From NCBI GenBank assembly GCA_002099625.1, contig GCA_002099625.1_4857.1: 64,000 nt of DNA, one strand, 5' to 3'. Position 1 is the stretch's first letter; each line of letters opens with the position of its first letter. Of this stretch, positions 13,728 to 63,649 are shown piece after piece. Origin of the DNA: Escherichia coli (GTDB lineage: Bacteria; Pseudomonadota; Gammaproteobacteria; Enterobacterales; Enterobacteriaceae). A model generated the notes under the pieces. It made no database searches. It had not been told where the DNA came from and was given only the letters and a program-made list of their open reading frames with translations. Made by a program: the position numbers and the translations under genes.

Positions 13728-14732
13728 TCAGAGAATCATCCCAACGAGTGCTACCCCTGCAGCCAAATACGCGGGAATGGATTTCAAGAACTCCGAGCTA
13801 TCTTTTCGCTGATAAGCTCGGGACTCGTATTGGTCTTTACGAACATCGGAACGCAACTTAAGCTCATTCGTCTGGATTGCGTTAAGGGTGTTAATCCTCT
13901 CCTTCTCCAGCGCCAGATTATTAAGTTGCGTACGATAATCGAGGTCTTGCCGATTCTTTTTCTCATCGAGATCTTGCAACTTGGCCTGATACGTGGCTTC
14001 CAGCTTCGCACGAACATCTCGCAACTCTGGAATGTTATCGAGCCACCGATAACGCCTCGCTTCATCTTCAGATGCAAACGCCCGGAACGGGGACATCGGG
14101 TCATCGAAAGCGTACATTATCATCTTACCCCCTTCGACACACTCCGCACCACCGATTACCATGTAAATACCCTCGTCGTAATACTTCGATCGAATCGGTT
14201 CGACTTCCAACATCGTTGTATAGAACCTCAGCCACTTTAAAGGTGCTGGGTCTTCGTACTTCTGCACAACTACCACGCCCAAGGCAAATTCTTTACGATC
14301 CCCTCCAGGCTTACCAATAACCTCAGAATCGAGTTTTACTGGTTGGGTAGAGAAAGCCATTCCTAGCTTCTTCAACACCACCAAGTCGCCTCGCATTAAT
14401 GCACCGATATCATCAACTACATACATCAGCGTTGTTTCGCCGTTCGTAGTTAATTCCTTACATATCTGCGCATACTGCTTTGGCGAATGTGCGTCGCGCA
14501 AACCAGATAGGTTAGCACCGTTCGCAAACACCGTATAGGTCACGTAAATAACAATCCCAAATTCCGCCGCTGTGGTGGACGACGGGGCTAAAACAAAATG
14601 CCCGCCACTGAGTTCAGTGACGTAAATGGGAAACCCGGTATTATTTTCGTACGTGATAGTCTTCGACACGGCACCACGGTGCATGGGCCGCTGGGTTAGC
14701 GTTGGCTGAACGTCTAAATCATAACGGTTCAT
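13728..14732 (-). CDS. hypothetical protein with coiled-coil region and C-terminal transmembrane anchor
   Basis: Track start at 14756 is a TTG; first ATG at 14732 (MNRYDL...). C-terminus ...FLKSIPAYLAAGVALVGMIL is hydrophobic; 15-mer promoter motif lies 39 nt upstream of the ATG. Confidence 0.5.
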   Translation of the reverse strand: MNRYDLDVQPTLTQRPMHRGAVSKTITYENNTGFPIYVTELSGGHFVLAPSSTTAAEFGIVIYVTYTVFANGANLSGLRDAHSPKQYAQICKELTTNGETTLMYVVDDIGALMRGDLVVLKKLGMAFSTQPVKLDSEVIGKPGGDRKEFALGVVVVQKYEDPAPLKWLRFYTTMLEVEPIRSKYYDEGIYMVIGGAECVEGGKMIMYAFDDPMSPFRAFASEDEARRYRWLDNIPELRDVRAKLEATYQAKLQDLDEKKNRQDLDYRTQLNNLALEKERINTLNAIQTNELKLRSDVRKDQYESRAYQRKDSSEFLKSIPAYLAAGVALVGMIL

Positions 14733-14771
14733 TGAGCATCCCAGTAATAATACCAAAAGAATTATTCACGT

Positions 14772-14786
14772 AGATAATATCTATCT
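14772..14786 (-). promoter_or_regulatory. conserved 15-mer AGATAATATCTATCT (copy 1 of 5), putative phage promoter
   Basis: Exact 15-mer shared with four other sites; 39 nt upstream of the ATG of 13728..14732 on the minus strand. Confidence 0.55.
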
Positions 14787-14837: not shown

Positions 14838-15536
14838 TTAGGGTATTAGGCGTTGGGCTATTTCGCGGAGTTGGTCGCGGGTTAAATCAGCCAACTTCTG
14901 GTCGCCGAAGCCCAACTTCAGACCCAGCTCGTATCCAGCTTGCGGATACGTGTTCGTGTTTGCTACTGAGAGGAGTGCATCGGCTATCTTTACCATCGTT
15001 AACTCGAGAGACGCATACGGGGCGGGGATCGGCTGATTCACGATTTGGTAATTATAACGCACTGCGGCGTTATCGTAGTCAAACTCCATCCTTCTGCCGA
15101 GAACGTTAAACGACTCCGCAGAATAACTACCAAATGGGTGATTGGCTTTTTCCCACAAATCTTTCCGTTCAGTAAACCCAGTCGCGAAGTTCTGACGTAT
15201 GGTGTCGAATATTTGCGTTGCCTGGCTAGGGTGTATATTTTTCAGCTCATTGTAGTCGTAGTCGGCGATGGAATATAGAGTGAACACAACACCGTTTATA
15301 TTTAACTGCGGATAATCCATCCGCAGACTATCATCACCTTGTAAATGAAGTTCCCACATCCTCACCCACTGCAATATCGCACTTACCGCATCGTGACTGA
15401 GATAAAAATTAGTAGGTTCTTCAGAATTTTCACGGAAGGGAACAGAGCATTCCGATGCAAAAAAGCCGGCTGCCATAAATCCTCTGCCGTCGAACATAGG
15501 CGCAACTAATCTTGATTTTTCTAAATTGATTACCAT
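14838..15536 (-). CDS. hypothetical protein
   Basis: 232-aa ORF, ATG with AAGGAGA RBS; promoter motif 40 nt upstream, terminator further upstream. Confidence 0.55.
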   Translation of the reverse strand: MVINLEKSRLVAPMFDGRGFMAAGFFASECSVPFRENSEEPTNFYLSHDAVSAILQWVRMWELHLQGDDSLRMDYPQLNINGVVFTLYSIADYDYNELKNIHPSQATQIFDTIRQNFATGFTERKDLWEKANHPFGSYSAESFNVLGRRMEFDYDNAAVRYNYQIVNQPIPAPYASLELTMVKIADALLSVANTNTYPQAGYELGLKLGFGDQKLADLTRDQLREIAQRLIP

Positions 15537-15576: not shown

Positions 15577-15591
15577 AGATAATATCTATCT
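15577..15591 (-). promoter_or_regulatory. conserved 15-mer AGATAATATCTATCT (copy 2 of 5), putative phage promoter
   Basis: Exact 15-mer; sits between the capsid-candidate terminator (15602-15640) and the start of 14838..15536, 40 nt from the ATG. Confidence 0.55.
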
Positions 15592-15671: not shown

Positions 15672-17969
15672 TTAGCCGCCAGCGCCTTCACCGCCAGTAC
15701 CTGGCTGGGTACCGCCGCCAACATCACCAGCATTACCACCGTCAGTACCGCCGGTACCGTTGGAAGTAGTAGTGACGTTGAACGCCAGTTTCTCTTCCAC
15801 GAACTTGGTGATACCTTTAATCCAGATCAGACCAGTGATCGGGCAGTGGCAGATGTGCGCGTTACGAGGCTGTACTGCCAGCTCTTTGCTGGTAGCGCCG
15901 TTACGCTGGATGTTGATGTTGGTTACCATGATCGGAGACCAGAAGTGGTTACCCCAGTTCAGAACACAGTAAGAACCATCATCAGCGGTTGGAACTTTCA
16001 GAACCCACTGCAGGCGGCGAGTCCAGCTGCCGTCAGCTTCGTTCTTCACACGCCAGCGGTCATCGTTGGTGGTGATAACTTCGTACTCGTAGCGATCGCC
16101 CAGCAGACGCTGGTCACCCTGAACCAGCAGCAGCATTGCAGCAGTCGGTTCGTCAGTTGCGATAACAACTTTCGGCAGTGCGTTCGGGTCCGCAGTCAGC
16201 AGGCGCAGAGCCGGCATGAAGCGAGAGTCCTGGATAGCACGAGTTACCTGGTCACCGATACGCTGTACCAGACCCTGACGGGCGTTGATGAGCGCATCTT
16301 TGGTATCCAGAGACTGGATCACTTTGTCCACTTCGTAGTCGCTTTCGCTGTACCACGGAGCAACCCAGTGACGGCCCAGGCCGCGGATAGCAGGTTTGTC
16401 CCACGGAGTGATCATGGACGCAGCTGCGTTCTTAACCGCTTCGGTGTAAGACAGAGTCTGAGTGATAGCCAGCATTTCGTTACGGATGTTAACCGCAGAA
16501 ACGAGGTCGTCCAGACGTTCGGTGTCGTCGTATTCAACGCCAACCGGAGATTTGGTCATGATCGGAGAACCGTACTGCAGTTTGTAGTTCTCTTGTTCCC
16601 AAATCGGGTCGAGCAGAAGGCCCTGGGTTCTCCGGTTCTCGTTGGTACGAGTACCGTCGAAGCGCCAGCCCAGCAGCTCCAGTTTCAGGTTGTCGATGAT
16701 CACTTTACCGGTGCCGCTTTCGATATCAACAGCAGTACCAGTTGCGTCGTACAGACCTTCGATTTCCAGAGACGGTGCAGTCACGTCAACACGACCAGAG
16801 AACTGACCGTTGGTGAACAGAGACATGCTGATGTTCATGGAATAACGAATGGTGTAATCGTTCTGTGCCAGAGCGGCCAGTGCCGGGATTTCAGCACCTT
16901 TCCAGTCCAGAGACTTGGCGTTCAGGGAGAACACGGTGCGACGGAACTGCAGGACCAGCTCACGGCCATCACCTTCAGGAGGACGCTGGAAAGTAGCGAA
17001 CTGCATGTCGCGTACGTTCAGTTTGATCAGCGCACCATCTTTCGCTTCTTCGGTCGGCTTACGCACAGACAGCAGCAGGCTACCCAGCGCCGCACCCGGT
17101 GCGATTTCGTCGGTTTCATCGTAACCTTCCTGCACGATACCCGGATGGGCAGACAGCTGGAACAGGTTCAGACGACGTTCAGAGAAGCTCAGGTAGTTGG
17201 TCGGATACGCCGGCACACGACCCAGCTGAACGTTTTCGTTTTCGATGATGTCTTCGGATACGAAGAACTTCGCGTTCTCGCCGGTTTCCATCACGTAAGG
17301 AACGATACGGATAGCATCGTCCTGCAGGACTTTGTGGTTAGACAGCGCGTTATGCAGCGGCTGACGGTTGTCTTCAACCACGTCTTTGGTCAGCAGGGCG
17401 TTCAGGATACCACGAGTTACAGTAGTAACTTTGGTACGAACGGTGATGCCGACGTCGTTGGTGTCCACAGTGATGGTCGGGAACAGGGTTTCTGCAAACT
17501 TGGATTGAGTTTCCAGAGCACGCACGTTCAGCGTCCAGGTCAGACCCAGGTTTTTGTCCAGGTCTTTGTTGGTGTAGTATTCGGTTGCGACCAGCGGAGT
17601 TTTACCGTAGTCAGCAGCCAGAGATGCTGCACCGGAAATAGCGATCGGCATGTAGCTGGCATATTCCGGCTTCGCGCTCTCAGCAGCAACACGGGTCATG
17701 AAGTCATCTTCGTGACCGGCAGCAGCCAGAATCATCGCAGAAGCAACCTGAGCAGCGTGGCTCATGGTTTTGCCAGGGTTTACAGCTTCGTAGTGCTGCT
17801 GAGCAGTGTCACGCAGGTTGGTGAAGCCGGCAGCATTTTTACGTACAGATTCGCCAACGGCTACGGTTTGCCATACGTCATTAGCGGAAGAGCCTGCCTT
17901 GGCAGCAGCGACCAGAGCATTGCCCTGCTGAACCAGCTGGTCCAGACTAGCGATACGGGTATCTTTCAT
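15672..17969 (-). CDS. putative major capsid protein (765 aa) with Ala-rich propeptide-like N-terminus and Gly-rich C-terminal tail; tail sheath is the alternative
   Basis: Strongly host-like codon bias (CTG, CGT, GGT, AAC dominate), own strong terminator, size in the range of phiKZ-type capsid proteins; N-terminal ~130 aa contain several S/A/G-x-E sites (AGHE, VGE, VATE). No homology search done. Confidence 0.45.
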   Translation of the reverse strand: MKDTRIASLDQLVQQGNALVAAAKAGSSANDVWQTVAVGESVRKNAAGFTNLRDTAQQHYEAVNPGKTMSHAAQVASAMILAAAGHEDDFMTRVAAESAKPEYASYMPIAISGAASLAADYGKTPLVATEYYTNKDLDKNLGLTWTLNVRALETQSKFAETLFPTITVDTNDVGITVRTKVTTVTRGILNALLTKDVVEDNRQPLHNALSNHKVLQDDAIRIVPYVMETGENAKFFVSEDIIENENVQLGRVPAYPTNYLSFSERRLNLFQLSAHPGIVQEGYDETDEIAPGAALGSLLLSVRKPTEEAKDGALIKLNVRDMQFATFQRPPEGDGRELVLQFRRTVFSLNAKSLDWKGAEIPALAALAQNDYTIRYSMNISMSLFTNGQFSGRVDVTAPSLEIEGLYDATGTAVDIESGTGKVIIDNLKLELLGWRFDGTRTNENRRTQGLLLDPIWEQENYKLQYGSPIMTKSPVGVEYDDTERLDDLVSAVNIRNEMLAITQTLSYTEAVKNAAASMITPWDKPAIRGLGRHWVAPWYSESDYEVDKVIQSLDTKDALINARQGLVQRIGDQVTRAIQDSRFMPALRLLTADPNALPKVVIATDEPTAAMLLLVQGDQRLLGDRYEYEVITTNDDRWRVKNEADGSWTRRLQWVLKVPTADDGSYCVLNWGNHFWSPIMVTNINIQRNGATSKELAVQPRNAHICHCPITGLIWIKGITKFVEEKLAFNVTTTSNGTGGTDGGNAGDVGGGTQPGTGGEGAGG

Positions 17970-22061: not shown

Positions 22062-22074
22062 TAAATTATCTATA

Positions 22075-22263: not shown

Positions 22264-22445
22264 TAGTAAATCTCCTGCTGCATTGGAAACACATTACCTG
22301 TCGGTGAGACGAGTAAGACTTGCGCGGTAACGTGAACAATTTCTTCTTCGTCCTGATGACGAACACCGTTAGTGAGATTATCCCACTCACGTTTAACACG
22401 AGGGTGAGATAAGAACTCGGCAAACTGCGTATCAGAAAAGTCCAT
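22263..22445 (-). CDS. hypothetical small acidic protein (60 aa)
   Basis: ATG at 22445 shares a TAATG overlap with the stop of the upstream mini-gene; MDFSDTQFAEFLSHPRVKREWDN... Confidence 0.35.
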   Translation of the reverse strand: MDFSDTQFAEFLSHPRVKREWDNLTNGVRHQDEEEIVHVTAQVLLVSPTGNVFPMQQEIY

Positions 22446-22588
22446 TAGCCGCGACCTGTGCACATGGCAACAGAGTTACCGTTATCGATGCATTTGTTGT
22501 AATCTTGAGTTACAGTGATAGACAGTACCGCGAAAGCAACAACAGCAACGATTGCGAAGATGGCACGTTTATGGTTACGAGTTAACAT
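22445..22588 (-). CDS. small single-pass membrane protein (47 aa), below the ORF-track size cutoff
   Basis: ATG at 22588 with AGGAG 8 nt upstream; MLTRNHKRAIFAIVAVVAFAVLSITVTQDYNKCIDNGNSVAMCTGRG; first gene after the 24-bp promoter motif. Confidence 0.4.
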   Translation of the reverse strand: MLTRNHKRAIFAIVAVVAFAVLSITVTQDYNKCIDNGNSVAMCTGRG

Positions 22589-22640
22589 GGTAATACTCCT
22601 TTAGCTTAATAGTCGATTGAGTTGATAGATTGTCTTCTAT

Positions 22641-22664
22641 CACCTAGGTAATATATATCTGAAA
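22641..22664 (-). promoter_or_regulatory. conserved element CACCTAGGTAATATATATCTGAAA (copy 1 of 2), putative phage promoter
   Basis: 24/24 identity with 31146-31169 and similar over ~40 bp; about 50 nt upstream of the ATG at 22588; minus-strand reading contains TATATATTAC. Confidence 0.5.
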
Positions 22665-22695
22665 TTATTTTTATTCAGAGTACACCCTCTATAAC

Positions 22696-22725
22696 GCTCT
22701 CAAACGCGTTTTGAGAGCTTTTATC
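22696..22725 (+). terminator. perfect 9-bp-stem hairpin with downstream TTTT on the plus strand, in an intergenic regulatory island
   Basis: GCTCTCAAA-cgcgt-TTTGAGAGC (22696-22718) followed by TTTTATCAC; no plus-strand gene upstream, so it may be an RNA structure or a binding-site palindrome rather than a terminator. Confidence 0.35.
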
Positions 22726-22727
22726 AC

Positions 22728-22786
22728 TTTAGAGGGTCGTTCTACCGTTAGAGTGGCTTTAGAAGGTTGTGTGTGCGTTTAGAGGG
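22728..22786. repeat. four imperfect direct repeats of TTAGAG(G/T)G-like units
   Basis: TTTAGAGGG (22728-22736), GTTAGAGTGG (22747-22756), TTTAGAAGG (22758-22766), TTTAGAGGG (22778-22786), spaced 11-20 bp. Confidence 0.45.
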
Positions 22787-22823
22787 CTAAAATAAAGAGA
22801 CCTGGTCTCACAAGGAGACCAGG
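22786..22823 (-). terminator. intrinsic terminator downstream of 22831..23628
   Basis: Hairpin CCTGGTCTC-acaag-GAGACCAGG (22801-22823) followed on the minus strand by TCTCTTTATTTTAGC. Confidence 0.6.
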
Positions 22824-22830
22824 CACACTT

Positions 22831-23628
22831 TTACATCAAATCCAGGCTCTGAGAGACCGCAACTTCCGGTTCACTGATGCCGCTGGTCACTGACAATGTA
22901 AAGCGACGATCGTTAATCACTTCAACTGCCTCGCTCGCACGCAGTGAATACTTATCGGCGATTGGCAGTACACTGTTATCGTTCTGTGGCGGCAGAATCT
23001 GTGCCGGGAACGGAATGTACGAGTTGAAAGTGATATACGGACCGACTTGCATCATCGGGAACACTTCGTTCACGTTATTCGACATCCCTTCATCCGAAGA
23101 GATAACGGAGTGACGCAGACAGGCACGCAAGCCAACGGTGTACTCCGGATCGCGCGATTCGCCGATCAGTGCGAAACGGAACACGTTGAAATCGTAGTCG
23201 TCTGCAGCGAAGTGTTCTGGCAGGATACGCTGTACGTATTCAGGGTAAGTGGTCACGTCACCCGGAATAACATTCACGGCGAGTTTCTGTGCCAGGAAAT
23301 ACGCATTCGCGAAACCGTACTGCCCCGCCAGCGCAGCTGATATCGGTGCAGTGGTTACGCAGTGCAGGAACAAGTGATAACCCAGCCCGCCTTTATCTTC
23401 GATTGCCAGGTCCTTCTTACTCTGCACACCGTCAGCAGTATAAATAACTGCCACTGTTTTATCCAACGTTGATGCCATGACAAAATCCAACTGCACCTCA
23501 CCGCTTTGCGGCAGTACCTTAACCAGGCGATCCCAGAGCTTGGTCGGTTTGGTGAAGTTAGCGGCTTCGTACGCATCAATGTCGAGAACAGTTTGGCCGG
23601 TCATGCGAAAGGTGTGAATCGCTTTCAT
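22831..23628 (-). CDS. hypothetical protein
   Basis: 265-aa ORF on coding strand. Confidence 0.55.
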   Translation of the reverse strand: MKAIHTFRMTGQTVLDIDAYEAANFTKPTKLWDRLVKVLPQSGEVQLDFVMASTLDKTVAVIYTADGVQSKKDLAIEDKGGLGYHLFLHCVTTAPISAALAGQYGFANAYFLAQKLAVNVIPGDVTTYPEYVQRILPEHFAADDYDFNVFRFALIGESRDPEYTVGLRACLRHSVISSDEGMSNNVNEVFPMMQVGPYITFNSYIPFPAQILPPQNDNSVLPIADKYSLRASEAVEVINDRRFTLSVTSGISEPEVAVSQSLDLM

Positions 23629-23671
23629 TGCAATATTTTCCTTAAGGTTACTTACGGGTCATACTAGATGA

Positions 23672-24985
23672 CTAAGCTGTAAATTTTTCATCTTTGAGCC
23701 AAAGACTCAGTTGTGATTGGGTGTTATAGCGTCCTGATGCCATCGTTTGACCGTCGACAGCAGACTGGAACACTTCACCCACCAACGTGCCGTAGCGGGT
23801 ATAGACCCCATACTCGTTGGCAAAAACGTATTTTACTGGCATACCGGGATATAGGATGCCGTGCGTTGATCGGTTCCAGGTTGTTTGCACAATCGTACCC
23901 AGACCCATCTCCAGTTTAGACCGCTGTGGTTTATCGGTATCGCTAAAGTGCTTATCAGGATCGATTGGTGCGTTAACCACACCACCTGGATACGCAGCAG
24001 GGTCGGCCTGTGCCACAAATTTATCAGGTGTGGTCATACTGATGTCGCCAGGCGTAAATGAACTACTACGCCCATCCAACACACGTACAGACCCTACCCG
24101 GTAACCCGTACCCTGGTTAAGCGCGGCCTGGTCACGGTATTCCAAACTACTGGTGTCGCCGCCACAAATCAGATAGATAACATTACCCGCGATATCGGTG
24201 GTGCGGTCAATGTGAGCAGCCTGTTCACGAGGCAAGTTATAAATGACCAGTTTAGGCTTCGTTGTGTTATTAAACTTCAACGAGTCCCAAGGTCGATACA
24301 GATACCATCGTTGTAGGTATTGGAAGACCCCAATACCTTTGCTGTAAACACCGTAATGGTTCTGCAGATAATCAAACACGCTTAAGAAGTCTTCGGAGTC
24401 TGGTATAACGATGTCCCGATATGCCTGCTGTTCTTCTTCATCGTATTCAATCCCTTTCAACTGCCCCTCTGCAGCCACCCCTTCCGGCAACGTATCCGCC
24501 AATATCGAGCGAGCCACTGTTAACCCATCTGTTTCGTGGTAGATGCCGCCCACTTGACGATTACGCAGGAACCACATCGACTCATCCATCAGCTCCAATG
24601 TTACCAATGCGATAGATTTCTCATCAGACTGACTCAAGAACATCGTCGGTGATTCCGCGTTGTGGTCGCGGTTATTTATCACGATGCCGCGGTAGTTAAA
24701 GACCCCTGCGATTTTCTGTCCACGACGCAGTAACAGCTTTACCTTCAAATCCCCTTCTGCGGACGATGTGATCATTCGCATGTGGCTGTAGGGGATAGCC
24801 AAGGTGAGATGTGTCAATAAACAGATATCACGCGTAAAGTGACCGGTGTGAATGATAGACAGCATCTTCAACACCGTCACTGGGGCACCGTGCACCGTGA
24901 GGAATATCCCGTAGTCGATAGCCGGTAACCCCCGAGCATTAGCGATGTGACCGTTCGCCATCTGTTGTAACCGACCAAACGACAT
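23672..24985 (-). CDS. hypothetical protein (437 aa)
   Basis: Long ORF on coding strand; no motif recognised. Confidence 0.55.
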   Translation of the reverse strand: MSFGRLQQMANGHIANARGLPAIDYGIFLTVHGAPVTVLKMLSIIHTGHFTRDICLLTHLTLAIPYSHMRMITSSAEGDLKVKLLLRRGQKIAGVFNYRGIVINNRDHNAESPTMFLSQSDEKSIALVTLELMDESMWFLRNRQVGGIYHETDGLTVARSILADTLPEGVAAEGQLKGIEYDEEEQQAYRDIVIPDSEDFLSVFDYLQNHYGVYSKGIGVFQYLQRWYLYRPWDSLKFNNTTKPKLVIYNLPREQAAHIDRTTDIAGNVIYLICGGDTSSLEYRDQAALNQGTGYRVGSVRVLDGRSSSFTPGDISMTTPDKFVAQADPAAYPGGVVNAPIDPDKHFSDTDKPQRSKLEMGLGTIVQTTWNRSTHGILYPGMPVKYVFANEYGVYTRYGTLVGEVFQSAVDGQTMASGRYNTQSQLSLWLKDEKFTA

Positions 24986-25524
24986 TAGCGACCTCCTCGG
25001 GCTCTATAAGCGTACTCAATACGTTTCATAATCGTATCATTAAAACGGTGGAGTTTAGACTCCAGGCGGACCTGTCCAAATAACGACTGAACACAGTCCG
25101 CCATCGTTGCGGTGGGTTTCTTGAAATACCCGTAGCGGTTAGCCACAGGAAACAGTTTCGAAGCCAGCACATTGAACTGACGCAACCCTTCGATAGGGAC
25201 TTCCCGGTAAATCAGCGTCGGGTTCTCCAGATAGTTCAGCCAGTCCGCAAGGTGTTCCATAATCCACCCGTACACTTTAATCCCGTCATGCGGGTCGTGT
25301 ACATCCAACGCACCACCTGTCGCTAAATACTCGGCAGCTTCTGAGGGGTGCAGATAGATAGGCTTCATGTTCAGTAACAACGCTTGTCGTTTCTTCGGGT
25401 CTTCTGGCAAGAACAATCCGTGTTCCTGACTGGCGTAGGTTGTGATGGTTGCGTATTCCGGTACCCGGAAGAACACCCACGCTTTAAACAGCATAAATGC
25501 TGCACTGCGCTTCTTCTCCGACAT
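24985..25524 (-). CDS. hypothetical protein
   Basis: 179-aa ORF, overlap-coupled to neighbours. Confidence 0.5.
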   Translation of the reverse strand: MSEKKRSAAFMLFKAWVFFRVPEYATITTYASQEHGLFLPEDPKKRQALLLNMKPIYLHPSEAAEYLATGGALDVHDPHDGIKVYGWIMEHLADWLNYLENPTLIYREVPIEGLRQFNVLASKLFPVANRYGYFKKPTATMADCVQSLFGQVRLESKLHRFNDTIMKRIEYAYRARGGR

Positions 25525-25526
25525 TA

Positions 25527-26882
25527 CTACCTCGCGTATTTCAAAATCACGTAGACCATCGGGACGTAATAGAACTGACTGTCCTTCGGTAAAGCCAGCA
25601 CCAATTCTGCTAAACGCGCAGCCACTTCACTAGGTACTGGTTGTTTGTTCAGATACAGGTACAAACAATGCTCCAGAACCGAGCTATACGAGCCGCTATA
25701 GAACGTTTCGCTTAACAGGTAGGGTTTATACGTCAACGGCAGAAAAGCCACCATATCCTCGCCTGCGTTGCCCTGATACTCAGGGAACATAACCGGTTCG
25801 AATGCTTCGAACTCTGGCCACTCCCCATCGTACGTTGCCAACTGACGAATCTGTGATGTAAAGTAACGCGTTGAACTGAACTGTGACCATGCGATGGTGT
25901 TGCGGGTCTGCATCGTTCTGAACGTGCGCGGGTTAACTGCGCTGCATTCTTTCTCGACGTAAGGTAGCAGTTCTGGCTGTTGATTTAACAACACCGTGAA
26001 CAGCGTTTCGATATCTTGCACGGGTTTCGGCGGGTGCGGGTAAATACGGATATCTTTACCAACGGTTCGAAGACCGATACCCTTCACAAACATCGCCAAG
26101 AAGACGTCGTAGTAGCCGCCTGCCTTTAACCCGTCGAGTTTCCAGTCGCGTGGATAAGCAAGGGTTTCTAAACTGGTATCGTAGAAGCGACGGACAAACG
26201 TCGTCTCAATGTCCTTAATGCGGTCTCCCAGCTCCAGGAACGTACGATATTCGTTGGGGGTCAGTAAGGTATCACCACCGGTCCACGCACGCTCACGGAC
26301 GTAATGGAGCGTTCTGACGGTACACAGACGAATCGTCTCTGCAATCTGCGGCGTAATCTCGTACAACATCGTGTAACGTATTTGATACGTTGCAATTTTG
26401 TTGTTCGACATTCGGGTAACGGTAGTGATGTTAAACAGTCCGTGTCGATGATCACCTATTGGGGCAACGAAGAAGTCTCCTTCATTCGGTGTAATCGATG
26501 CTACCAAGGTCGACGTCCCGGTCAGTTCGAAAGTCTTACGTTGTTCGTCCTGCGTACGGTCGAGCGGTGCGTTAACACGTAATGACAGATTAACAATCTT
26601 AAGCAGCTGTTGCGTAGGGCTGTCATTCTGAGTATCGAACATCGTCTTCGGATCGTTACGACCCGACAACGCGTGATAAAAATCAACCGGCCATTCAGAA
26701 CCTTCGTTGTATTGCAGGAGATACTGTTTCGGAATCCTGTCGAAGTCCGTTACCGTGGTGCGGGTTGGAATCGTTACCAAGTTGCTGGCTTCTTTCACCC
26801 CGTCCTGCGGTTTATTGATAATCGGAATTTCAGGTTCAACAGGAACGAATTTAGTATCACCCCTCTTGTTCGCCTTGAGCAT
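25527..26882 (-). CDS. hypothetical protein (451 aa)
   Basis: Long ORF on coding strand. Confidence 0.55.
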   Translation of the reverse strand: MLKANKRGDTKFVPVEPEIPIINKPQDGVKEASNLVTIPTRTTVTDFDRIPKQYLLQYNEGSEWPVDFYHALSGRNDPKTMFDTQNDSPTQQLLKIVNLSLRVNAPLDRTQDEQRKTFELTGTSTLVASITPNEGDFFVAPIGDHRHGLFNITTVTRMSNNKIATYQIRYTMLYEITPQIAETIRLCTVRTLHYVRERAWTGGDTLLTPNEYRTFLELGDRIKDIETTFVRRFYDTSLETLAYPRDWKLDGLKAGGYYDVFLAMFVKGIGLRTVGKDIRIYPHPPKPVQDIETLFTVLLNQQPELLPYVEKECSAVNPRTFRTMQTRNTIAWSQFSSTRYFTSQIRQLATYDGEWPEFEAFEPVMFPEYQGNAGEDMVAFLPLTYKPYLLSETFYSGSYSSVLEHCLYLYLNKQPVPSEVAARLAELVLALPKDSQFYYVPMVYVILKYAR

Positions 26883-28359
26883 TATCGGCTCCTCTGATGG
26901 CTATAATCGTGGTATTAAATTGCGTCAACAGGACACGGCGATAGAACTTCGTGATTTCATCAATCACACTTGGTGGTAACACAGGTTTATCCCACCACCA
27001 ATCCGGGCAATCCCAATCTGGGAATAACCACTCAATAAGCACTTTTGCCGCTTTTGGATAAAGATGCAGTGGCCATAAGTCCAGATTACGCCAGTCGTGT
27101 ATTGCCGACTCTGTTAAGTAGTACGCTTTCTCGACATGAACTTCACGGTTACGTAGCGAGAAGACACCGTTTTCCCAATGGTAGAAACGTGGTTCAATGA
27201 TTTGACCGTTCTCGAACAACTCCATACGGATAATGCCCGTCTGACCTGTCGGGTCTATCGTGCGGCAGTGTTCAATATAAGGAACCACCTCAGCGTTCCA
27301 AACATACGGCAGGTCGTCAATGCTACAAACTTCAGGATCGGTCATGTTTTCTTCACCGAATGCTACATCGGTGCCGAACACATGCAGAAGCTTTGCTTTT
27401 AGCGGCGAGTGTGTACGTTCAAACTGTTCTGTCGGTGACAGCAGATACGGTAGGCGTAAGAACTGGCGAGATTCATTAATCCACCAAGTACCGTCAAGGT
27501 TCTTTTGCTGTTGGTGACGTTGCACGCCCTCTTCATTACTCACAAACGGTGGGTCTATCTCAGGCCACCATTCATCAGGCAACGGTGTCTGGTTGATGAT
27601 GTACGGGTAGGTAATCACCACCTCTTCGGGTCGCTGATATGAGAAGCGTATAACGAAGCTGGTCTCGTAATGGTTTTCGTCGTTATCCCAGGTAGGAGAG
27701 ATAACATCGTAAACCGTCTCGATACGGGTTGGTGCGTAGCGTACCGCTAAGACATTCTGACCACCGGCGACATTACCTGTGGTGAAAACGTCTGGTGTGA
27801 AGTGCGCCTTTAGATAATCTTTAAAGTCGTCGTACTTCGGCACACGTGTCCCTGCGGCGATATAGCATTCGTTCAATAGCTTAAGCGCGGGCTTTGGAAT
27901 CAGGTAGTACGCTTCGGATTCCGTCATGGTCGAATAGCGACCCATGTCGATAAGTGAATCCAGGCGGTTCGCCCAACGTAACAATTCGTCGCGTGATGGG
28001 CCGACACGCCGGAGCGTGATGGTCACGTTATACATTACGCGGACAGGAGCAGCGCGTACTTGGTCTTCGGGATTATGGAAGAATGGAATCTCTGCCGCTA
28101 ACCCAACTTGACGGTTAATGCGTGCGCGTTCATCACGTTCTTCTTCCACTTCGACGTAGACACGGTTCGGTGCTGAATAGTCCACCGGTGTCTCATCGCC
28201 GAGCGTAGAGCCTGGCTGATGGGCGGTGTTGAAGCTATCCGTGAAAACAACACTGGCACGTTCAATACCAGATTCGTTTAGCACACGTTCTACGACGCCG
28301 TCGACCACAGCTTTGCGCATGGTCTTGTCCAACGACGGAATTTCAAAATACTGTTGCAT
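26857..28359 (-). CDS. hypothetical protein (500 aa)
   Basis: Long ORF on coding strand; Trp-rich N-terminal region. Confidence 0.55.
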   Translation of the reverse strand: MQQYFEIPSLDKTMRKAVVDGVVERVLNESGIERASVVFTDSFNTAHQPGSTLGDETPVDYSAPNRVYVEVEEERDERARINRQVGLAAEIPFFHNPEDQVRAAPVRVMYNVTITLRRVGPSRDELLRWANRLDSLIDMGRYSTMTESEAYYLIPKPALKLLNECYIAAGTRVPKYDDFKDYLKAHFTPDVFTTGNVAGGQNVLAVRYAPTRIETVYDVISPTWDNDENHYETSFVIRFSYQRPEEVVITYPYIINQTPLPDEWWPEIDPPFVSNEEGVQRHQQQKNLDGTWWINESRQFLRLPYLLSPTEQFERTHSPLKAKLLHVFGTDVAFGEENMTDPEVCSIDDLPYVWNAEVVPYIEHCRTIDPTGQTGIIRMELFENGQIIEPRFYHWENGVFSLRNREVHVEKAYYLTESAIHDWRNLDLWPLHLYPKAAKVLIEWLFPDWDCPDWWWDKPVLPPSVIDEITKFYRRVLLTQFNTTIIAIRGADNAQGEQEG

Positions 28360-28395
28360 TAGCTGTCCCTCGTTGTAGTCATATCACTGGCCTAA

Positions 28396-28430
28396 AACGC
28401 AAAAAAAAGAAAGGGAGCCGAAACTCCCTT
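28396..28430 (-). terminator. intrinsic terminator downstream of 28437..28766
   Basis: Hairpin AAGGGAG-ccgaaa-CTCCCTT (28411-28430) followed on the minus strand by TCTTTTTTTTGCGTTTT. Confidence 0.65.
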
Positions 28431-28436
28431 CGTGTT

Positions 28437-28766
28437 TTAGTGGGCCAGCCAAGCTAGCTGCCACTTCTTACATTTTATTCCGCTGTGTCCAACCGGATTG
28501 CGGATAATGTCCATCGTTTTCCCGACAACGAATTCAATCATCTTGTCTGATAGCATTTTACCCATCGCGATAGAGAGGGCCGTAACCTGATCAGGGTCAT
28601 CGATGTACGCATAGACCGGCTCATTACTGCCGAAGATAAGATAGAAGGAACCCTCGCAGGCCACGATTGAGGTCAGTGGCACGATGCACCCGGTATACAC
28701 TCTCGCCAGTTCAGCCGCTTTTGGGGTTACTTCCATTACGTAACCCTTAACAGATTTCTTTTCCAC
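28437..28766 (-). CDS. hypothetical protein
   Basis: 109-aa ORF immediately downstream of the DHFR gene. Confidence 0.5.
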   Translation of the reverse strand: MEKKSVKGYVMEVTPKAAELARVYTGCIVPLTSIVACEGSFYLIFGSNEPVYAYIDDPDQVTALSIAMGKMLSDKMIEFVVGKTMDIIRNPVGHSGIKCKKWQLAWLAH

Positions 28767-28767
28767 T

Positions 28768-29319
28768 TTAAACTCCAGCGATACGATTTAAAATTTGATA
28801 CGTCCAACGGTGCGTGTGTTTCTGGCCGTCGGGTAAATGGGTCATGGTGTAGTCGACTTGAAAAACATCTCTGTCGATTTCTGGGAAGAAAGCATCGGCA
28901 CCTTCAACAGCGATGTCAATACGCGATAGATAGATACGATCCACTCGAGCGAGGGTTTGATGATAAATTGATGCGCCACCAATAATCATCACCTCTTGCT
29001 CTTTCCCGGTATCTTTCTCAATACGTTCCAGAGCTTTGATAGCTAAGTCAATACTCGTGTGATACGTCACCAAACGCATGTCCGTGTGTTCTTCCCGGCC
29101 ACTAATATAAGCTTCTGGGTTACGAGTAACGATTAAGTTACCGCGGTTAGGCAAAGGACGACAACCTAACGATTCCCAGGTCTTACTACCCATGATAACG
29201 TTCTTCCCTGTGGTAATTGCCTTAAAGTTAGCCAGGTCGGCAGGCAGACGCCACGGCAGTTCATTGTTTTTACCGATGGCATTGTTGCGGTCCATCGCGA
29301 CGATAATAGAGAGTTTCAC
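28768..29319 (-). CDS. folA: dihydrofolate reductase
   Basis: 183 aa; IVAMDRNNAIGKNNELPWRLPADLANFK... and VIMGSKTWESLGCRPLPNRGNLIVTR... match the canonical DHFR N-terminal half (compare E. coli FolA [32 protein letters not shown]...[21 protein letters not shown]), plus MIIGGASIYHQTLARVDRIYLSRID. Confidence 0.85.
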   Translation of the reverse strand: MKLSIIVAMDRNNAIGKNNELPWRLPADLANFKAITTGKNVIMGSKTWESLGCRPLPNRGNLIVTRNPEAYISGREEHTDMRLVTYHTSIDLAIKALERIEKDTGKEQEVMIIGGASIYHQTLARVDRIYLSRIDIAVEGADAFFPEIDRDVFQVDYTMTHLPDGQKHTHRWTYQILNRIAGV

Positions 29320-29687
29320 GGTTTGCTCCTACGGGCTTTAGATAATTCTTTCATTGCGTGGCGTAAATGGCGACTAAATTCAAGACGGCTATACGAGAAT
29401 GTCACCGGATAGTCCAGAATCACCGACAGTGATACCGTTCTGGCATCCACATCGACCAACAGACTGTTCGTACAGCAACCTGCAAACATCCCACCACCAA
29501 CCAACGGCCTCTTAAGCCTAATAGTTAGCGTGCCAAGCCATTCCCTGTCGCCGAGCAGCAACAAGGCCTCTGCCAGGTCTTCTTCAACTATCGCTAGACA
29601 GTATTCGTCATCTCGTACACGGAGGCGAATCTGCGGTTCTACGTTTGCGGTTTCTGGCATCATCTCAAATTTAAATTTATCGGTCAT
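29316..29687 (-). CDS. hypothetical protein
   Basis: 123-aa ORF, ATGA-coupled to the DHFR gene. Confidence 0.5.
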   Translation of the reverse strand: MTDKFKFEMMPETANVEPQIRLRVRDDEYCLAIVEEDLAEALLLLGDREWLGTLTIRLKRPLVGGGMFAGCCTNSLLVDVDARTVSLSVILDYPVTFSYSRLEFSRHLRHAMKELSKARRSKP

Positions 29688-29693
29688 CTCACA

Positions 29694-29727
29694 ATCCCAA
29701 AAAAGAAGGTGGCTTGTTAGGCCACCT
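29694..29727 (-). terminator. intrinsic terminator downstream of 29735..30280
   Basis: Hairpin AAGGTGGC-ttgttag-GCCACCTT (29705-29727) followed on the minus strand by CTTTTTTGG. Confidence 0.55.
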
Positions 29728-29734
29728 TATTAAA

Positions 29735-30280
29735 TCATTGAACCATACGCTGCGCGTCGTAAGACGGTGCGAGGTTCACAACACGACCATGTAGAGTTTG
29801 CTCTGCTTCGTCTAACAGGTCATCGCGTACGAGCGTCTGGCGAATGTAAAGCGTTGCCCGTATCCCCTCAGCGCTGTAAGGCGCGGTGACCATTTTGGTC
29901 TGGTAACCTTCAATCGTCACCGGAACACGCTCGCCATTACGACGAACAAAATGCTCCAGCTTACCGTAATCGTGACTGCAGACTTTAGACATGTCAGACA
30001 ATCCCGCATCGATTAAGTATTTCCAAAGACTGACGATGCCTTCTGAGCAATGTTTGTTAAGTTCACCTTCGACGACAAACTCGTACCCACCGTACGTTAG
30101 AATGTGCGTGCCTGCTGAACGACGGTCACATTCTAAAATGAACACGCCCAGACCAATCATAACCGGACGTGGGATTGTCATGACACTGGTACTAAATTGC
30201 AGCGTAGTAACCTCATCCCAAAGGGGCGATGATTTGTCGTTGCTTACACTAATAACATCTTTGAGATTGACACGTTTCAT
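29735..30280 (-). CDS. hypothetical protein
   Basis: 181-aa ORF on coding strand. Confidence 0.5.
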   Translation of the reverse strand: MKRVNLKDVISVSNDKSSPLWDEVTTLQFSTSVMTIPRPVMIGLGVFILECDRRSAGTHILTYGGYEFVVEGELNKHCSEGIVSLWKYLIDAGLSDMSKVCSHDYGKLEHFVRRNGERVPVTIEGYQTKMVTAPYSAEGIRATLYIRQTLVRDDLLDEAEQTLHGRVVNLAPSYDAQRMVQ

Positions 30281-30338
30281 TATAAATACTCCTTACGATT
30301 AATGGTCGATTACATACGGTTTCAGGCTAACGTAATAT

Positions 30339-31100
30339 TTACGCTGCTGGTTCTTCAGCGGTTTTCACTTCAACTGGTTTCATCAACGAGTTCGCACAGT
30401 CGAAGATAGCATCCAGGAAACCACGGAACGGCTTCATGGCTTCACGCTGGGCGTTCTGACGTTCTTCTTCAATTGCTTCTTCTTGCGCCTGAATTTCTTC
30501 AGCAGTCAGCTCTGGGTGTTCCGTCATGCTTTCTGCCAGGGTCATCACTTTCGGCTGCGCATTCAGAATCGGAATACGGCGGATGACCTTGGTGATATTC
30601 CCGAGCTTCATGCCACCCAGCATGGTATCGAACAGCGTACCGAAATCTTGCAGTGGGTCTTCGCTGATTTCCAGTACCGCCGGAGTCGCAACCAGACCAA
30701 AGGCAATGACCAATTCAACGGCAGTGTCAGTGACGTGCGCAGCGAACGGGGTGTCTTCCATCTGCAGGTAATTGTTGCCATTATAGGTCACCGGAATGAA
30801 TTTGATTTCTTCCCCTTTCTTCAGTCGCAGTGTATCGACTGCGGCTTTGTACTGAACTTCGTACAGTTCCGGTTTAACACCGTCAACGTTATCCAGTGTA
30901 AAGAGCAGGTCACCAACCGCCATACGGCGCGGCAGTTTGCGTTTGTTGATTTCGCGCAGCCAGACTTGTAAGCCGGTGAATTGAATTGGGGACAGTCTAA
31001 TTTTAAAGCCGTTGGTTGCTTGCAGGATAGCACCGTCGTCTTCGCTACGTTCGATAGAGCCATTAGCCAGAGTAAGCAGATTGATAGTTTTCATTTTCAT
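30339..31100 (-). CDS. hypothetical protein
   Basis: 253-aa ORF; first gene downstream of the second copy of the 24-bp promoter motif. Confidence 0.5.
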   Translation of the reverse strand: MKMKTINLLTLANGSIERSEDDGAILQATNGFKIRLSPIQFTGLQVWLREINKRKLPRRMAVGDLLFTLDNVDGVKPELYEVQYKAAVDTLRLKKGEEIKFIPVTYNGNNYLQMEDTPFAAHVTDTAVELVIAFGLVATPAVLEISEDPLQDFGTLFDTMLGGMKLGNITKVIRRIPILNAQPKVMTLAESMTEHPELTAEEIQAQEEAIEEERQNAQREAMKPFRGFLDAIFDCANSLMKPVEVKTAEEPAA

Positions 31101-31145
31101 ATTCCTTAAGTAATGGTCAGTTAGTAAAGCAAATCATTGTTTGCT

Positions 31146-31169
31146 CACCTAGGTAATATATATCTGAAA
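31146..31169 (-). promoter_or_regulatory. conserved element CACCTAGGTAATATATATCTGAAA (copy 2 of 2), putative phage promoter
   Basis: 24/24 identity with 22641-22664; lies between the terminator 31187-31227 and the ATG at 31100, about 45 nt upstream. Confidence 0.5.
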
Positions 31170-31186
31170 ATTATTGTAATCGGAGA

Positions 31187-54102: not shown

Positions 54103-56208
54103 TTACAACTCAATTACCACAGCGGCTCCTAGGTCATCGTACAACGATGCCGGGATTTTGTACTCGGTATAAAAACCAACGCGATCGATATTCCCCTGCT
54201 GTCCTTCAAACAACAACATCGGAATTGCCGAGCGCAAACTAATGAGCGTGTTGTGATCGACAAACCGTTTCCCGGTGGCATTAGTAGAATCCTCACTGTC
54301 AAATCCTACTGCCGGGAACGGATTGGTTGGCGACTCTACACGAGATATCGCCAACATAATCGCAATATGCGTCATCGGTATACCACTCAGCTTACGCTGG
54401 ATATACTTAAACGTGTCCATCAACGCATAAGTACACTGTTTCTCTGTAGCACCACCCATCTCAACCAACGTCACTGGTTTCACACGACCTTGTTTCTTGT
54501 TCAGCTTCACAGTCGATGCCGTGTTGATGATTTCCACAATGTCTTCGTTCTTATCGGCAGCAATCGAACGGAGCTTGGTTTCTAAGCCGGCTACGAACTC
54601 TGCCATCGATTCAGAACGGTTGGTGTAGACCAGGACCGGGTGTTTCGGGTTCCATCCTTTTAAGGGGATTTCTACTGTCTTCTTCTCGATACGAATGTTC
54701 GCTCGTTGTTTCAAGAAGTAGTGCAGGAACGGTTTAGAGAAGTTCCCACAAACACCCATTCGCACATCGATAGAATCCGCAGCGATTATCTGCCCATCTT
54801 CTAAACGACGTTGGAAAGTTAAGTCGGTGATTTCTGGTAATGCCGTTTCATCAATTGCATCGAGATCTTCATGATACGCAATCTGGCTCAGCTCCGAATA
54901 AATTTTGTCGGTAACAACCAACTCGTATTCTGACCAATTCCCACGCTGTGGTTTTGGCAGCAAGCACAACCCTTTCAGAGAGTTATGTTTGTATTCGGTC
55001 ATATACTCACGCATACGTGGGGTGAGTACCAGGTTGAGCAGATAACGCAAGAAGTCAAGGTGCTTGGTAGAGAGAATTCCCTGTGTACCCTTTTCCGAGA
55101 TGGACGTGGACGCCAGGTGACCTGGTGACGTACCTTCAGAGAGGTTATAAATCAAATCCCCCATACAGGTCGCACAGATGGACTGATTCGCCATCTCTTT
55201 ACAGGTCATGGCACTACGGAAGACCAGCGGTTTGCCAACCAGGTCTGCGTATCCACCTTTCTCAAATCTCAACCACGGACCATTATCGCCTTCTAAACGA
55301 TAACGCATCCCCACCATCGCTTTATAGGCACGCTCATCCAGCTGCGTATCCTTAAACGTGTAGCGGTGTGCGTGAGTTGTACCGCAGTCGTCGTACGTGA
55401 AATACATCAGTACGTTTGCTGCCAACTGCAGTTTACGTGAGGCGTATTCTGCTTCGGCAATCTTGTCAGTGTTGTACAAGTGGGAACGTGAAGTTGCACC
55501 GGATTCTTTCAAACGCGAAATAACCGAGTGCATTCCGGTAAAGAAGCCTTCCCACACCTGATTGGTGTATACACGTGAGTCAATTTCTGACGTTTTACCA
55601 CGCACGAAGGCTTGCAGTACCTGGTTCATCTTCACAGTACCGTCCAGTACCGACATCACGACCGGGTTATACCGTAGCGCAGGGTCTTTGAAGATTTTCT
55701 CGATAAGCTTGTACGCTTCTTCAACCATATCCTGACCATCTTCATCGTAGCCAGTAGGGTATTGCACTTCCCACTGACGGATGAGTTCGAAGTTCGGGTG
55801 GTCGTAGATCTCCATCATCGTATCAAAGTCGATTGTCGTACAATAGGACAGCAAGTTCTTCACTGTCATGTTGAACGCATCGGCGTAGACATGTTGACTC
55901 AGGATATAACGCGTTTCAGCAAGGTCGACACCTGCTTTACGGGCCAGTACCGCTGCTTCCGACATAAAGTCCAGATGCAGGTCATCTGTTGCTACCTGAC
56001 CTGGACGATACGCCATGGTCGATGGAGTGGGCACCTGCGGATACAGACGCGACACACCCCAATACGGCCAGCTGAGTTTGATGTGGCGACTAGACATTTC
56101 CAACGACTTACCATCGTCGAATGTCACGTAATAACGCCCGCGTAGTTTCCACACCTGATCAGAGTTAAGCATACGCAAATCACGTACGTGTACAGAACGA
56201 CCCGCCAT
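54103..56208 (-). CDS. hypothetical large protein (701 aa); possible RNA polymerase beta-prime-like C-terminal fragment
   Basis: TAATG overlap with the RNAP beta fragment gene; EKGTQGILSTKH weakly resembles the beta-prime trigger-loop motif GTQLTMRTFH. The RNAP assignment is tentative and the NADFDGD motif is absent. Confidence 0.5.
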   Translation of the reverse strand: MAGRSVHVRDLRMLNSDQVWKLRGRYYVTFDDGKSLEMSSRHIKLSWPYWGVSRLYPQVPTPSTMAYRPGQVATDDLHLDFMSEAAVLARKAGVDLAETRYILSQHVYADAFNMTVKNLLSYCTTIDFDTMMEIYDHPNFELIRQWEVQYPTGYDEDGQDMVEEAYKLIEKIFKDPALRYNPVVMSVLDGTVKMNQVLQAFVRGKTSEIDSRVYTNQVWEGFFTGMHSVISRLKESGATSRSHLYNTDKIAEAEYASRKLQLAANVLMYFTYDDCGTTHAHRYTFKDTQLDERAYKAMVGMRYRLEGDNGPWLRFEKGGYADLVGKPLVFRSAMTCKEMANQSICATCMGDLIYNLSEGTSPGHLASTSISEKGTQGILSTKHLDFLRYLLNLVLTPRMREYMTEYKHNSLKGLCLLPKPQRGNWSEYELVVTDKIYSELSQIAYHEDLDAIDETALPEITDLTFQRRLEDGQIIAADSIDVRMGVCGNFSKPFLHYFLKQRANIRIEKKTVEIPLKGWNPKHPVLVYTNRSESMAEFVAGLETKLRSIAADKNEDIVEIINTASTVKLNKKQGRVKPVTLVEMGGATEKQCTYALMDTFKYIQRKLSGIPMTHIAIMLAISRVESPTNPFPAVGFDSEDSTNATGKRFVDHNTLISLRSAIPMLLFEGQQGNIDRVGFYTEYKIPASLYDDLGAAVVIEL

Positions 56209-58475: not shown

Positions 58476-58490
58476 AGATAATATCTATCT
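58476..58490 (-). promoter_or_regulatory. conserved 15-mer AGATAATATCTATCT (copy 3 of 5), in a 66-bp divergent intergenic region
   Basis: Exact 15-mer; 30 nt from the minus-strand ATG at 58445 and 21 nt from the plus-strand ATG at 58512, so it could serve either gene. Confidence 0.55.
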
Positions 58491-63634: not shown

Positions 63635-63649
63635 AGATAATATCTATCT
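63635..63649 (-). promoter_or_regulatory. conserved 15-mer AGATAATATCTATCT (copy 5 of 5), putative phage promoter
   Basis: Exact 15-mer 34 nt upstream of the ATG at 63600. Confidence 0.55.

Follow-up and report, generated by a model that had tools for sequence, protein, structure and literature searches.

A repeated 24-bp element in SPN3US-like jumbo phage DNA is probably a phiKZ-type early promoter of a hairpin-bearing TATTAC sub-class

In phiKZ-like jumbo phages (Chimalliviridae), an injected virion RNA polymerase (RNAP) transcribes the early genes from an AT-rich element located about 10 nt upstream of the transcription start, and bioinformatic searches can recover a motif of this kind from every RNAP-encoding jumbo phage (PMC7598289; PMC11512511). 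The early promoter core of phiKZ is given as TATATTAC, with corresponding consensuses for 201phi2-1 (..TTTRARR_BTATATTACDWHDGTG) and for OBP and N1M2 (..TTTCARRYAKATATTATYWAAGTGWA) (PMC7058600 Table 2), and conservation at -10, -20 and -30 has been described for 201phi2-1 (PMC11512511). Here we analyze a 24-bp element, CACCTAGGTAATATATATCTGAAA, present in two copies in a 64-kb stretch of DNA deposited under Escherichia coli (assembly GCA_002099625.1, contig GCA_002099625.1_4857.1; hereafter, the window). The window is about 97% identical, in reverse orientation, to the Salmonella jumbo phage SPN3US and its relatives (Seoulvirus). We conclude that each copy is probably a phiKZ-like early promoter that forms one class with a related 15-mer found elsewhere in the window and belongs to a TATTAC sub-class associated with a hairpin at the 5' end of the transcript.

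The element lies on the plus strand at positions 22641–22664 and 31146–31169 and, with up to three mismatches allowed, nowhere else in the window; 100 dinucleotide shuffles yielded no chance match. An earlier note on this DNA, made from its sequence, had reported the two copies as identical at 24 of 24 positions, and pairwise alignment extends the identity to 25 of 25 bp (22640–22664 versus 31145–31169). Beyond this stretch a weaker likeness continues, upstream in an A/T-rich tract and downstream again at a CGACYATTA box and the ribosome-binding site (RBS). Both copies precede minus-strand genes, as the note had also claimed: the 22-kb copy is 52 nt upstream of the ATG at 22588 of a minus-strand open reading frame (ORF), and the 31-kb copy is 45 nt from a minus-strand ATG at 31100 and 51 nt from a better-spaced ATG at 31094. 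The statement that the 31-kb copy directly follows a terminator proved equally accurate, as it is adjoined by the minus-strand intrinsic terminator of the internal-head-protein gene (31228→31203; an 11-bp stem followed by a T-run).

Read in the sense of these genes, the element is TTTC-AGATATATATTACCT-AGGTGA. The promoter core AGATATATATTACCT, which includes TATATTAC, occupies 22646–22660 in the first copy and 31151–31165 in the second, both on the minus strand, and scores 41.7 and 45.5 bits, respectively, with the position weight matrix (PWM) described below. The core is preceded by an A/T-rich tract ending in TTTC (ataaaaataatttc, 22661–22674, and ttacaataattttc, 31166–31179, both minus strand), which in the first copy displays the conserved A at -10 and the T-rich positions -4 to -1 and has similar counterparts in relatives. 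It is followed by AGGTGA (22640–22645 and 31145–31150, minus strand), the putative region of transcription initiation, whose G is invariant in 22 of 22 SPN3US sites. Within the window, TATATTAC is confined to these two copies, and the minus-strand reading of the element contains TATATATTAC.

The suggestion that the element is of promoter type, and the statement that a similar core marks the early promoters of phiKZ-like phages, were both borne out: TATATATTAC/TATATTAC is present, TATATTAC is the published phiKZ early core, and its flanks are the same in phiKZ. The first 50 kb of the phiKZ sequence contain seven TATATTAC sites with tTTTAAACAG upstream and TAAnTTGA downstream, which is the layout of the element, and the element matches the 201phi2-1, OBP and N1M2 consensuses nearly base for base. 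As in the phiKZ-like class generally, the upstream flank is T-/A-rich, with an invariant A at -10 and a G at +19 of the core; the shared features include TTT(C/A)A immediately upstream, (G/T)TGA 5–7 nt downstream and an A/T-rich tract further upstream. In E. coli phage Goslar, a single match, tttcAGGGTTATATTACCTaggtga, with the same core and flank, is found directly upstream of the nuclear shell gene chmA, whose transcription, from the early infection vesicle, is under way by 5 min. The chmA promoter of Goslar can be regarded as the closest thing to experimental support for an early role of the element. The element is homologous to validated early promoters of phiKZ and Goslar.

The genomic setting agrees with that of the phiKZ-like early promoters (those of phiKZ, 201phi2-1, OBP and N1M2, and of Goslar chmA), which head non-structural operons, roughly 20–30 times per genome, in phages encoding both virion and non-virion multisubunit RNAPs. 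The virion RNAP of SPN3US consists of five subunits, gp42, gp218, gp240, gp241 and gp244 in the original numbering (PMC5694885). The genes for the non-virion RNAP (nvRNAP) are separate from this set, and RNAP beta and beta' genes are annotated in the SPN3US genome. In the window, the ORF at 56208–58445 contains an RNA_pol_Rpb2_6 domain, and its counterpart is an SPN3US RNAP beta gene that lies outside the virion subunits. Core, flanks, copy number, orientation and the split between virion and non-virion RNAPs all correspond to the phiKZ-like type. The element therefore belongs to a known kind of promoter, and what is new is, modestly, a variant-specific sub-class with a hairpin.

The window also contains five copies of a 15-mer (AGATAATATCTATCT on the plus strand, at 14772, 15577, 58476, 62219 and 63635), which in gene sense reads AGATAGATATTATCT. 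A mismatch search aligned it with the element in register, with 13 of 15 positions identical and the differences confined to core position 6 (G/T) and position 13 (T/C). When the whole SPN3US genome was searched with the degenerate core AGATAKATATTAYYT, about 22 promoter-like sites were recovered, all of them on the main coding strand; for 20, a co-oriented start codon follows within 100 nt. These 22 sites merge into one 36-nt consensus, cTcAAAAAaaTTTC-AGATAGATATTATCT-aaGTGAG, in which the A ten bases before the core and the G after the core are invariant; the element and the 15-mer share this A (at -10) and this G as well as the T-rich tract. A PWM built from the 22 sites finds exactly seven matches in the window, scoring 35.8–45.7 bits, with the next best at 12.6 bits and none in shuffled sequences. 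All seven are co-oriented with downstream non-structural operons, and neither variant is found in the structural-gene clusters of the window; together, the seven sites would constitute the early-promoter set of this genome segment.

Given the single register and the single 36-nt consensus, the element and the 15-mer represent a single promoter architecture in two versions, and the element is a variant of the 15-mer motif, not a separate one. The earlier note had treated the two as distinct and had proposed two temporal classes. The first of these claims does not hold, since intermediates exist besides the common register and consensus, and the second finds no support in the sequence, the 15-mer variant being the one that drives the nvRNAP genes. 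One 15-mer (58476–58490, minus strand) lies 30 nt upstream of the nvRNAP beta-like gene at 56208–58445, and two 15-mer-like sites precede the SPN3US homologue of the phiKZ nvRNAP gene gp055; no TATTAC site was found near either gene. Since synthesis of the non-virion enzyme has to rely on the virion enzyme, the 15-mer variant is probably an early promoter too.

The remaining 15-mers are likewise on the minus strand. The copy at 15577–15591 is upstream of a 232-aa ORF (14838–15536), the copy at 14772–14786 is upstream of the ORF at 13728–14756 and a "polymerase" gene, and the copy at 63635–63649 is upstream of the ORF at 61966–63600. The fifth copy (62219–62233) lies inside this last ORF, about 265 nt upstream of the next gene (60253–61953), and may be an internal promoter.

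The element is coupled to a potential hairpin at the predicted 5' end of the transcript: TGATAGA-agacaa-TCTATCA at 22623–22642 in the first leader and GAGCAAA-caatga-TTTGCTT at 31127–31146 in the second (both minus strand). In the SPN3US orthologue of the 31-kb copy, the hairpin is GAGATTGC-attg-GTAATCTT, wholly different in sequence and the same in structure. Because loop lengths differ, RNAalifold predicted no pairs from an ungapped MAFFT alignment of the leaders, and we assessed the hairpin instead by anchored-stem, shuffle and chimera tests on 39 distinct TATTAC leaders, scoring a perfect stem of at least 6 bp that begins within the first four bases after AGG. Such a stem is present in 28 of the 39 leaders, compared with 8.2 on average, and at most 18, when the 3' part was shuffled. 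Chimeras that join a 5' arm to a foreign 3' part form it in 27.5% of cases versus 72% for the native combinations (Mann-Whitney p=1e-8). Stem positions 5–9 are occupied by several pair types. Allowing G-U pairs lengthens the stems more than allowing A-C pairs, which argues for a structure in the sense RNA rather than in DNA. No such hairpin accompanies the 15-mer sites of these genomes (mean z -0.26, versus -2.2 for TATTAC sites), and the rare sites with G6 and C13 carry it. The support for this predicted structure is comparative, coming from the set of leaders. No Rfam 15 covariance model matched at gathering score anywhere in the window.

The earlier note had suggested a genome-wide motif search, and the element indeed recurs across the SPN3US genome and in related jumbo phages. 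In SPN3US, the 6 sites with T6 all have C13, about 15 sites combine G6 with T13, and a single intermediate has G6 and C13. Among the jumbo-phage contigs of IMG/VR, about 14 contain the 21-mer AGATATATATTACYTAGGTGA, at 41 sites in total, and a 44-nt consensus has 287 matches, almost all of them to unannotated DNA, in 79 records of chimallivirus-like phages. These records represent Salmonella Seoulvirus, Cronobacter CR5, Vibrio pVa-21, Pseudomonas PA1C, E. coli phage Goslar and the Erwinia phages phiEaH2, Stratton, Asesino, Caitlin, Huxley, Machina, ChrisDB, Kwan and Phobos. Both exact variants occur together in every related genome sampled, and the variant of the promoter is kept at orthologous genes in 15 of 15 assignable cases, in which the proteins are 23–69% identical. 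The C13 (TATTAC) variant with its 5' hairpin, conserved at orthologous genes, is thus a real sub-class. Compared with other phiKZ-like phages, Seoulvirus and its Erwinia relatives are distinguished by keeping sharply defined TATTAC and TATTAT variants side by side and by the tie of the TATTAC variant to a 5'-terminal hairpin, which is irregular in the phiKZ sites examined.

Several observations weigh against the assignment of each copy to a single early class. The start site, the polymerase and the timing of the element are deduced from homology; for SPN3US-like phages, the literature searched yielded no transcription start or timing data, and a search for the exact motifs and for SPN3US transcriptomics yielded no description of these sites. 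Each of the two hairpins of the window is weak when considered by itself (-6 and -8.9 kcal/mol; z -1.1 and -1.5). Clade-wide, the variants are discrete, with G6/C13 rare and T6/T13 not found, and their maintenance at orthologues down to 23–37% protein identity suggests that the difference matters functionally. Finally, some nvRNAP genes of 201phi2-1 are behind middle rather than early promoters (PMC11512511), which weakens the argument that the 15-mer is early. The last two points, and the presence of both exact variants in every related genome sampled, favor the alternative that the TATTAC element and the 15-mer are two functional classes, differing in time (immediate-early versus delayed-early or middle), in strength or in the polymerase forms or cofactors that use them. 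The genes downstream also differ: the 15-mer precedes the nvRNAP, the "polymerase", the DNA polymerase operon and thymidylate kinase, and TATTAC precedes small ORFs of unknown function, dihydrofolate reductase (DHFR) and a helix-turn-helix protein, with the hairpin on the C13 variant only. Against two classes stands the architecture common to both variants over 36 nt. The middle motif of phiKZ is weak and centred near -22 to -24, its late motif is TATG at the start (PMC7598289), and neither resembles the 15-mer. Moreover, the published degenerate OBP and N1M2 consensuses cover both variants, with K at position 6, and the predicted early consensus of these phages is of the 15-mer type, TATTAT (PMC7058600). 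The nvRNAP genes are headed directly by the 15-mer, and in Goslar 175 of 249 genes (about 70%) are already expressed at 5 min, a number that seven TATTAC sites alone could hardly explain. On balance, two functional classes are conceivable and rather improbable, and a difference between the variants in timing, strength or RNA fate is given a similarly small chance.

Two further explanations appear much less probable. The identity of the copies over 25 bp could reflect recent duplication or recombination of a mobile terminator–promoter cassette, and half of the TATTAC sites indeed lie at a fixed distance after a terminator, with the T-run ending at about -25. Cassettes of a promoter with a stem-loop are known in T4-type phages as PeSLs, short conserved early-promoter units next to stem-loops or terminators that are repeated through regions of small non-essential genes (PMC2839356). 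PeSL promoters are of the sigma-70 type and their stem-loop is a terminator; the element is of the phage-RNAP type, with its hairpin at the 5' end of the RNA. A scan for -35/-10 pairs found no sigma-70-like promoter at either copy, and in the one case examined, an indel was not bounded by the sites: between two 15-mer sites, the window and SPN3US differ by 625 bp owing to a deletion inside an ORF, with no exchange. PeSL membership was rejected on these grounds. In addition, the 21-mer remains exact where the proteins are only 25–40% identical and the flanks and hairpin sequences differ, which points to purifying selection rather than recent copying and makes a mobile cassette very unlikely. 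Least credible of all is the reading as a host sigma-70 promoter or as the operator of a DNA-binding protein. The core does contain the -10-like hexamers TATATT and TATTAC, and the 15-mer core is nearly palindromic; the negative -35/-10 scan, the strict orientation, the fixed spacing to start codons and the homology to the early promoters of phiKZ, whose transcription is independent of the host RNAP, all speak against it.

Under the favored assignment, a phiKZ-like early promoter of one class with the 15-mer, the units would be laid out, in gene sense, as a terminator, an A/T tract ending in TTTC, the core AGATATATATTACCT with TATATTAC about 10 nt before the start, AGGTGA, a hairpin of 6–10 bp in the initial ~20 nt of the transcript, the CGACYATTA box, a Shine-Dalgarno (SD) sequence and the ATG. 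The injected multisubunit virion RNAP would read the A/T tract and the core, and transcription would begin at the G/A of AGGTGA. This placement of the start is suggested by the SD spacing at hairpin-less sites, where the SD follows the core by 17–22 nt, and by the position of the 201phi2-1 and phiKZ motif about 10 bp upstream of the start. The conserved first bases of the RNA (GAGAGTT or GAGATT) would then be sequestered in the 5'-terminal stem-loop, which most plausibly shields the early mRNA from 5'-end-dependent decay. In E. coli, a 5' stem-loop blocks 5'-end-dependent attack by RNase E and RppH. As such attack is blocked by a stem-loop of this kind, these early messages should be stabilized.

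The same design is found in the phi10/gene 10 leader of phage T7, where a phage-polymerase promoter is followed by initial bases held in a 5'-terminal stem-loop, an RBS box and a strong SD, and where the stem-loop has been reported to stabilize the mRNA. Unlike the element, the T7 leader is transcribed by a single-subunit RNAP, and its sequence is unrelated. Early promoters of the N4 virion RNAP are likewise used by an injected polymerase and possess a hairpin; in N4, it is a DNA hairpin upstream of the start that is required for recognition. An N4-type hairpin promoter was rejected here, as the hairpin is downstream of the core, the G-U effect favors RNA and the 15-mer variant has no hairpin.

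An extended RBS motif, AATCGACTATTA at 22607–22618 and AACTGACCATTA at 31111–31122 (both minus strand), forms the box that precedes the SD. The CGACYATTA box is also found at RBSs that lack a promoter and so does not belong to the promoter. A box of the form AATCGAC(T/C)ATTA lies 3–5 nt upstream of a TAAGGAG SD at a subset of genes, including SPN3US positions 57149, 167595 and 224200. We considered a role as an enhancer complementary to 16S rRNA and rejected it: the longest complementarity was 5–7 nt, no better than in shuffled sequences, unlike that of the T7 epsilon, which as a control gave 9 nt at position 458.

The operon led by the 22-kb copy begins with a 47-aa gene (22445–22588, minus strand; phrog_8574), continues with small ORFs and contains internal terminators at 22063→22040 and 20729→20706. 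The operon upstream ends in an intrinsic terminator (22824→22800, minus strand) about 135 nt before the promoter copy. The spacer between this terminator and the promoter (22685–22790) contains, in gene sense, four direct repeats, CCCTCTAA, CCTTCTAA, CACTCTAA and CCCTCTAA, about 10–20 bp apart, followed by a hairpin (22693–22721) and, about 25 nt before the promoter core, by the inverted copy TAGAGGG. A motif, gcgtt(c/t)TAGAGGGT, and a non-coding spacer of about 135 nt are kept upstream of the orthologous promoter in four distant relatives (L015, L018, L038 and L042); the repeat region may be a binding site for a regulator or a small RNA.

The 31-kb early operon (28768–31100, minus strand) comprises three hypothetical genes and DHFR (28768–29319). 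Its terminators, at 29728→29706 and 28431→28410, close the operon before virion-protein genes. One SPN3US gene, RefSeq gp206 (591 nt), is missing here: in SPN3US it sits between the orthologues of 28437–28766 and 26857–28359, and in the window its place is taken by a 77-nt gap with a terminator (28360–28436). The 232-aa ORF between two 15-mer promoters (14838–15536, minus strand; phrog_15414, function unknown) is intact in the window, and an internal deletion of about 625 bp leaves a 27-codon remnant of it in SPN3US.

The 15-mer core is nearly palindromic (AGATA.ATAT.ATCT), as at SPN3US 191602(+)/191606(-) and 15614(+)/15618(-) and in the window at 14768–14786. At 191.6 kb of SPN3US, the 15-mer lies between the divergent genes RefSeq gp045 and gp046 and could act both ways.

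Two tandem 15-mer-like sites precede a 617-aa SPN3US gene outside the window (15768–17621; RefSeq gp244, the original gp22) that is located immediately upstream of the phiKZ gp055 homologue, the position of chmA in phiKZ and Goslar. By synteny, RefSeq gp244 is a candidate nuclear shell gene. A tblastn search of SPN3US with phiKZ gp054 for ChmA found nothing; a phmmer search of RefSeq gp244 against the Protein Data Bank gave no match, BLASTP against Goslar ChmA detected no similarity (E=0.08), and the PHROG annotation is "unknown".

At SPN3US 165687 (about 15687 in L005), also outside the window, a TATTAC promoter with a 5' hairpin is followed some 10 nt later by a strong intrinsic terminator, ggctaccttcgggtagcc plus a T-run. 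The predicted product is an RNA of about 50–60 nt, resembling the small RNAs derived from 5' untranslated regions that have been reported in phiKZ and 201phi2-1 (PMC11512511). At the Erwinia-phage sites L023 and L214, a hairpin and six T residues stand at the very start of the transcript.

More speculatively, TATTAC sites with their hairpin might form a distinct immediate-early tier, a cassette whose conservation extends from the Salmonella and Erwinia phages to chmA of Goslar, with TATTAT sites following different kinetics, an idea that we rate as doubtful. If it were true, the stem-loop would be a tag on virion-RNAP transcripts, for stability, for translation control or for handling in, or export from, the early infection vesicle, and the hairpin-less TATTAT sites would serve the replication and nvRNAP genes.

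SPN3US is a genetic model for the nucleus-forming jumbo phages, and a transcript map of it is absent from the literature searched. The sites described here provide an early transcription-unit map for an SPN3US-like phage, with seven promoters in the window and about 22 in the genome. The coupling of the promoter version common to phiKZ and Goslar to a covarying hairpin offers a handle on the stabilization or sorting of early mRNA and on the question of two tiers. As compact, host-independent promoter and leader parts, these elements could also serve the engineering of these phages.

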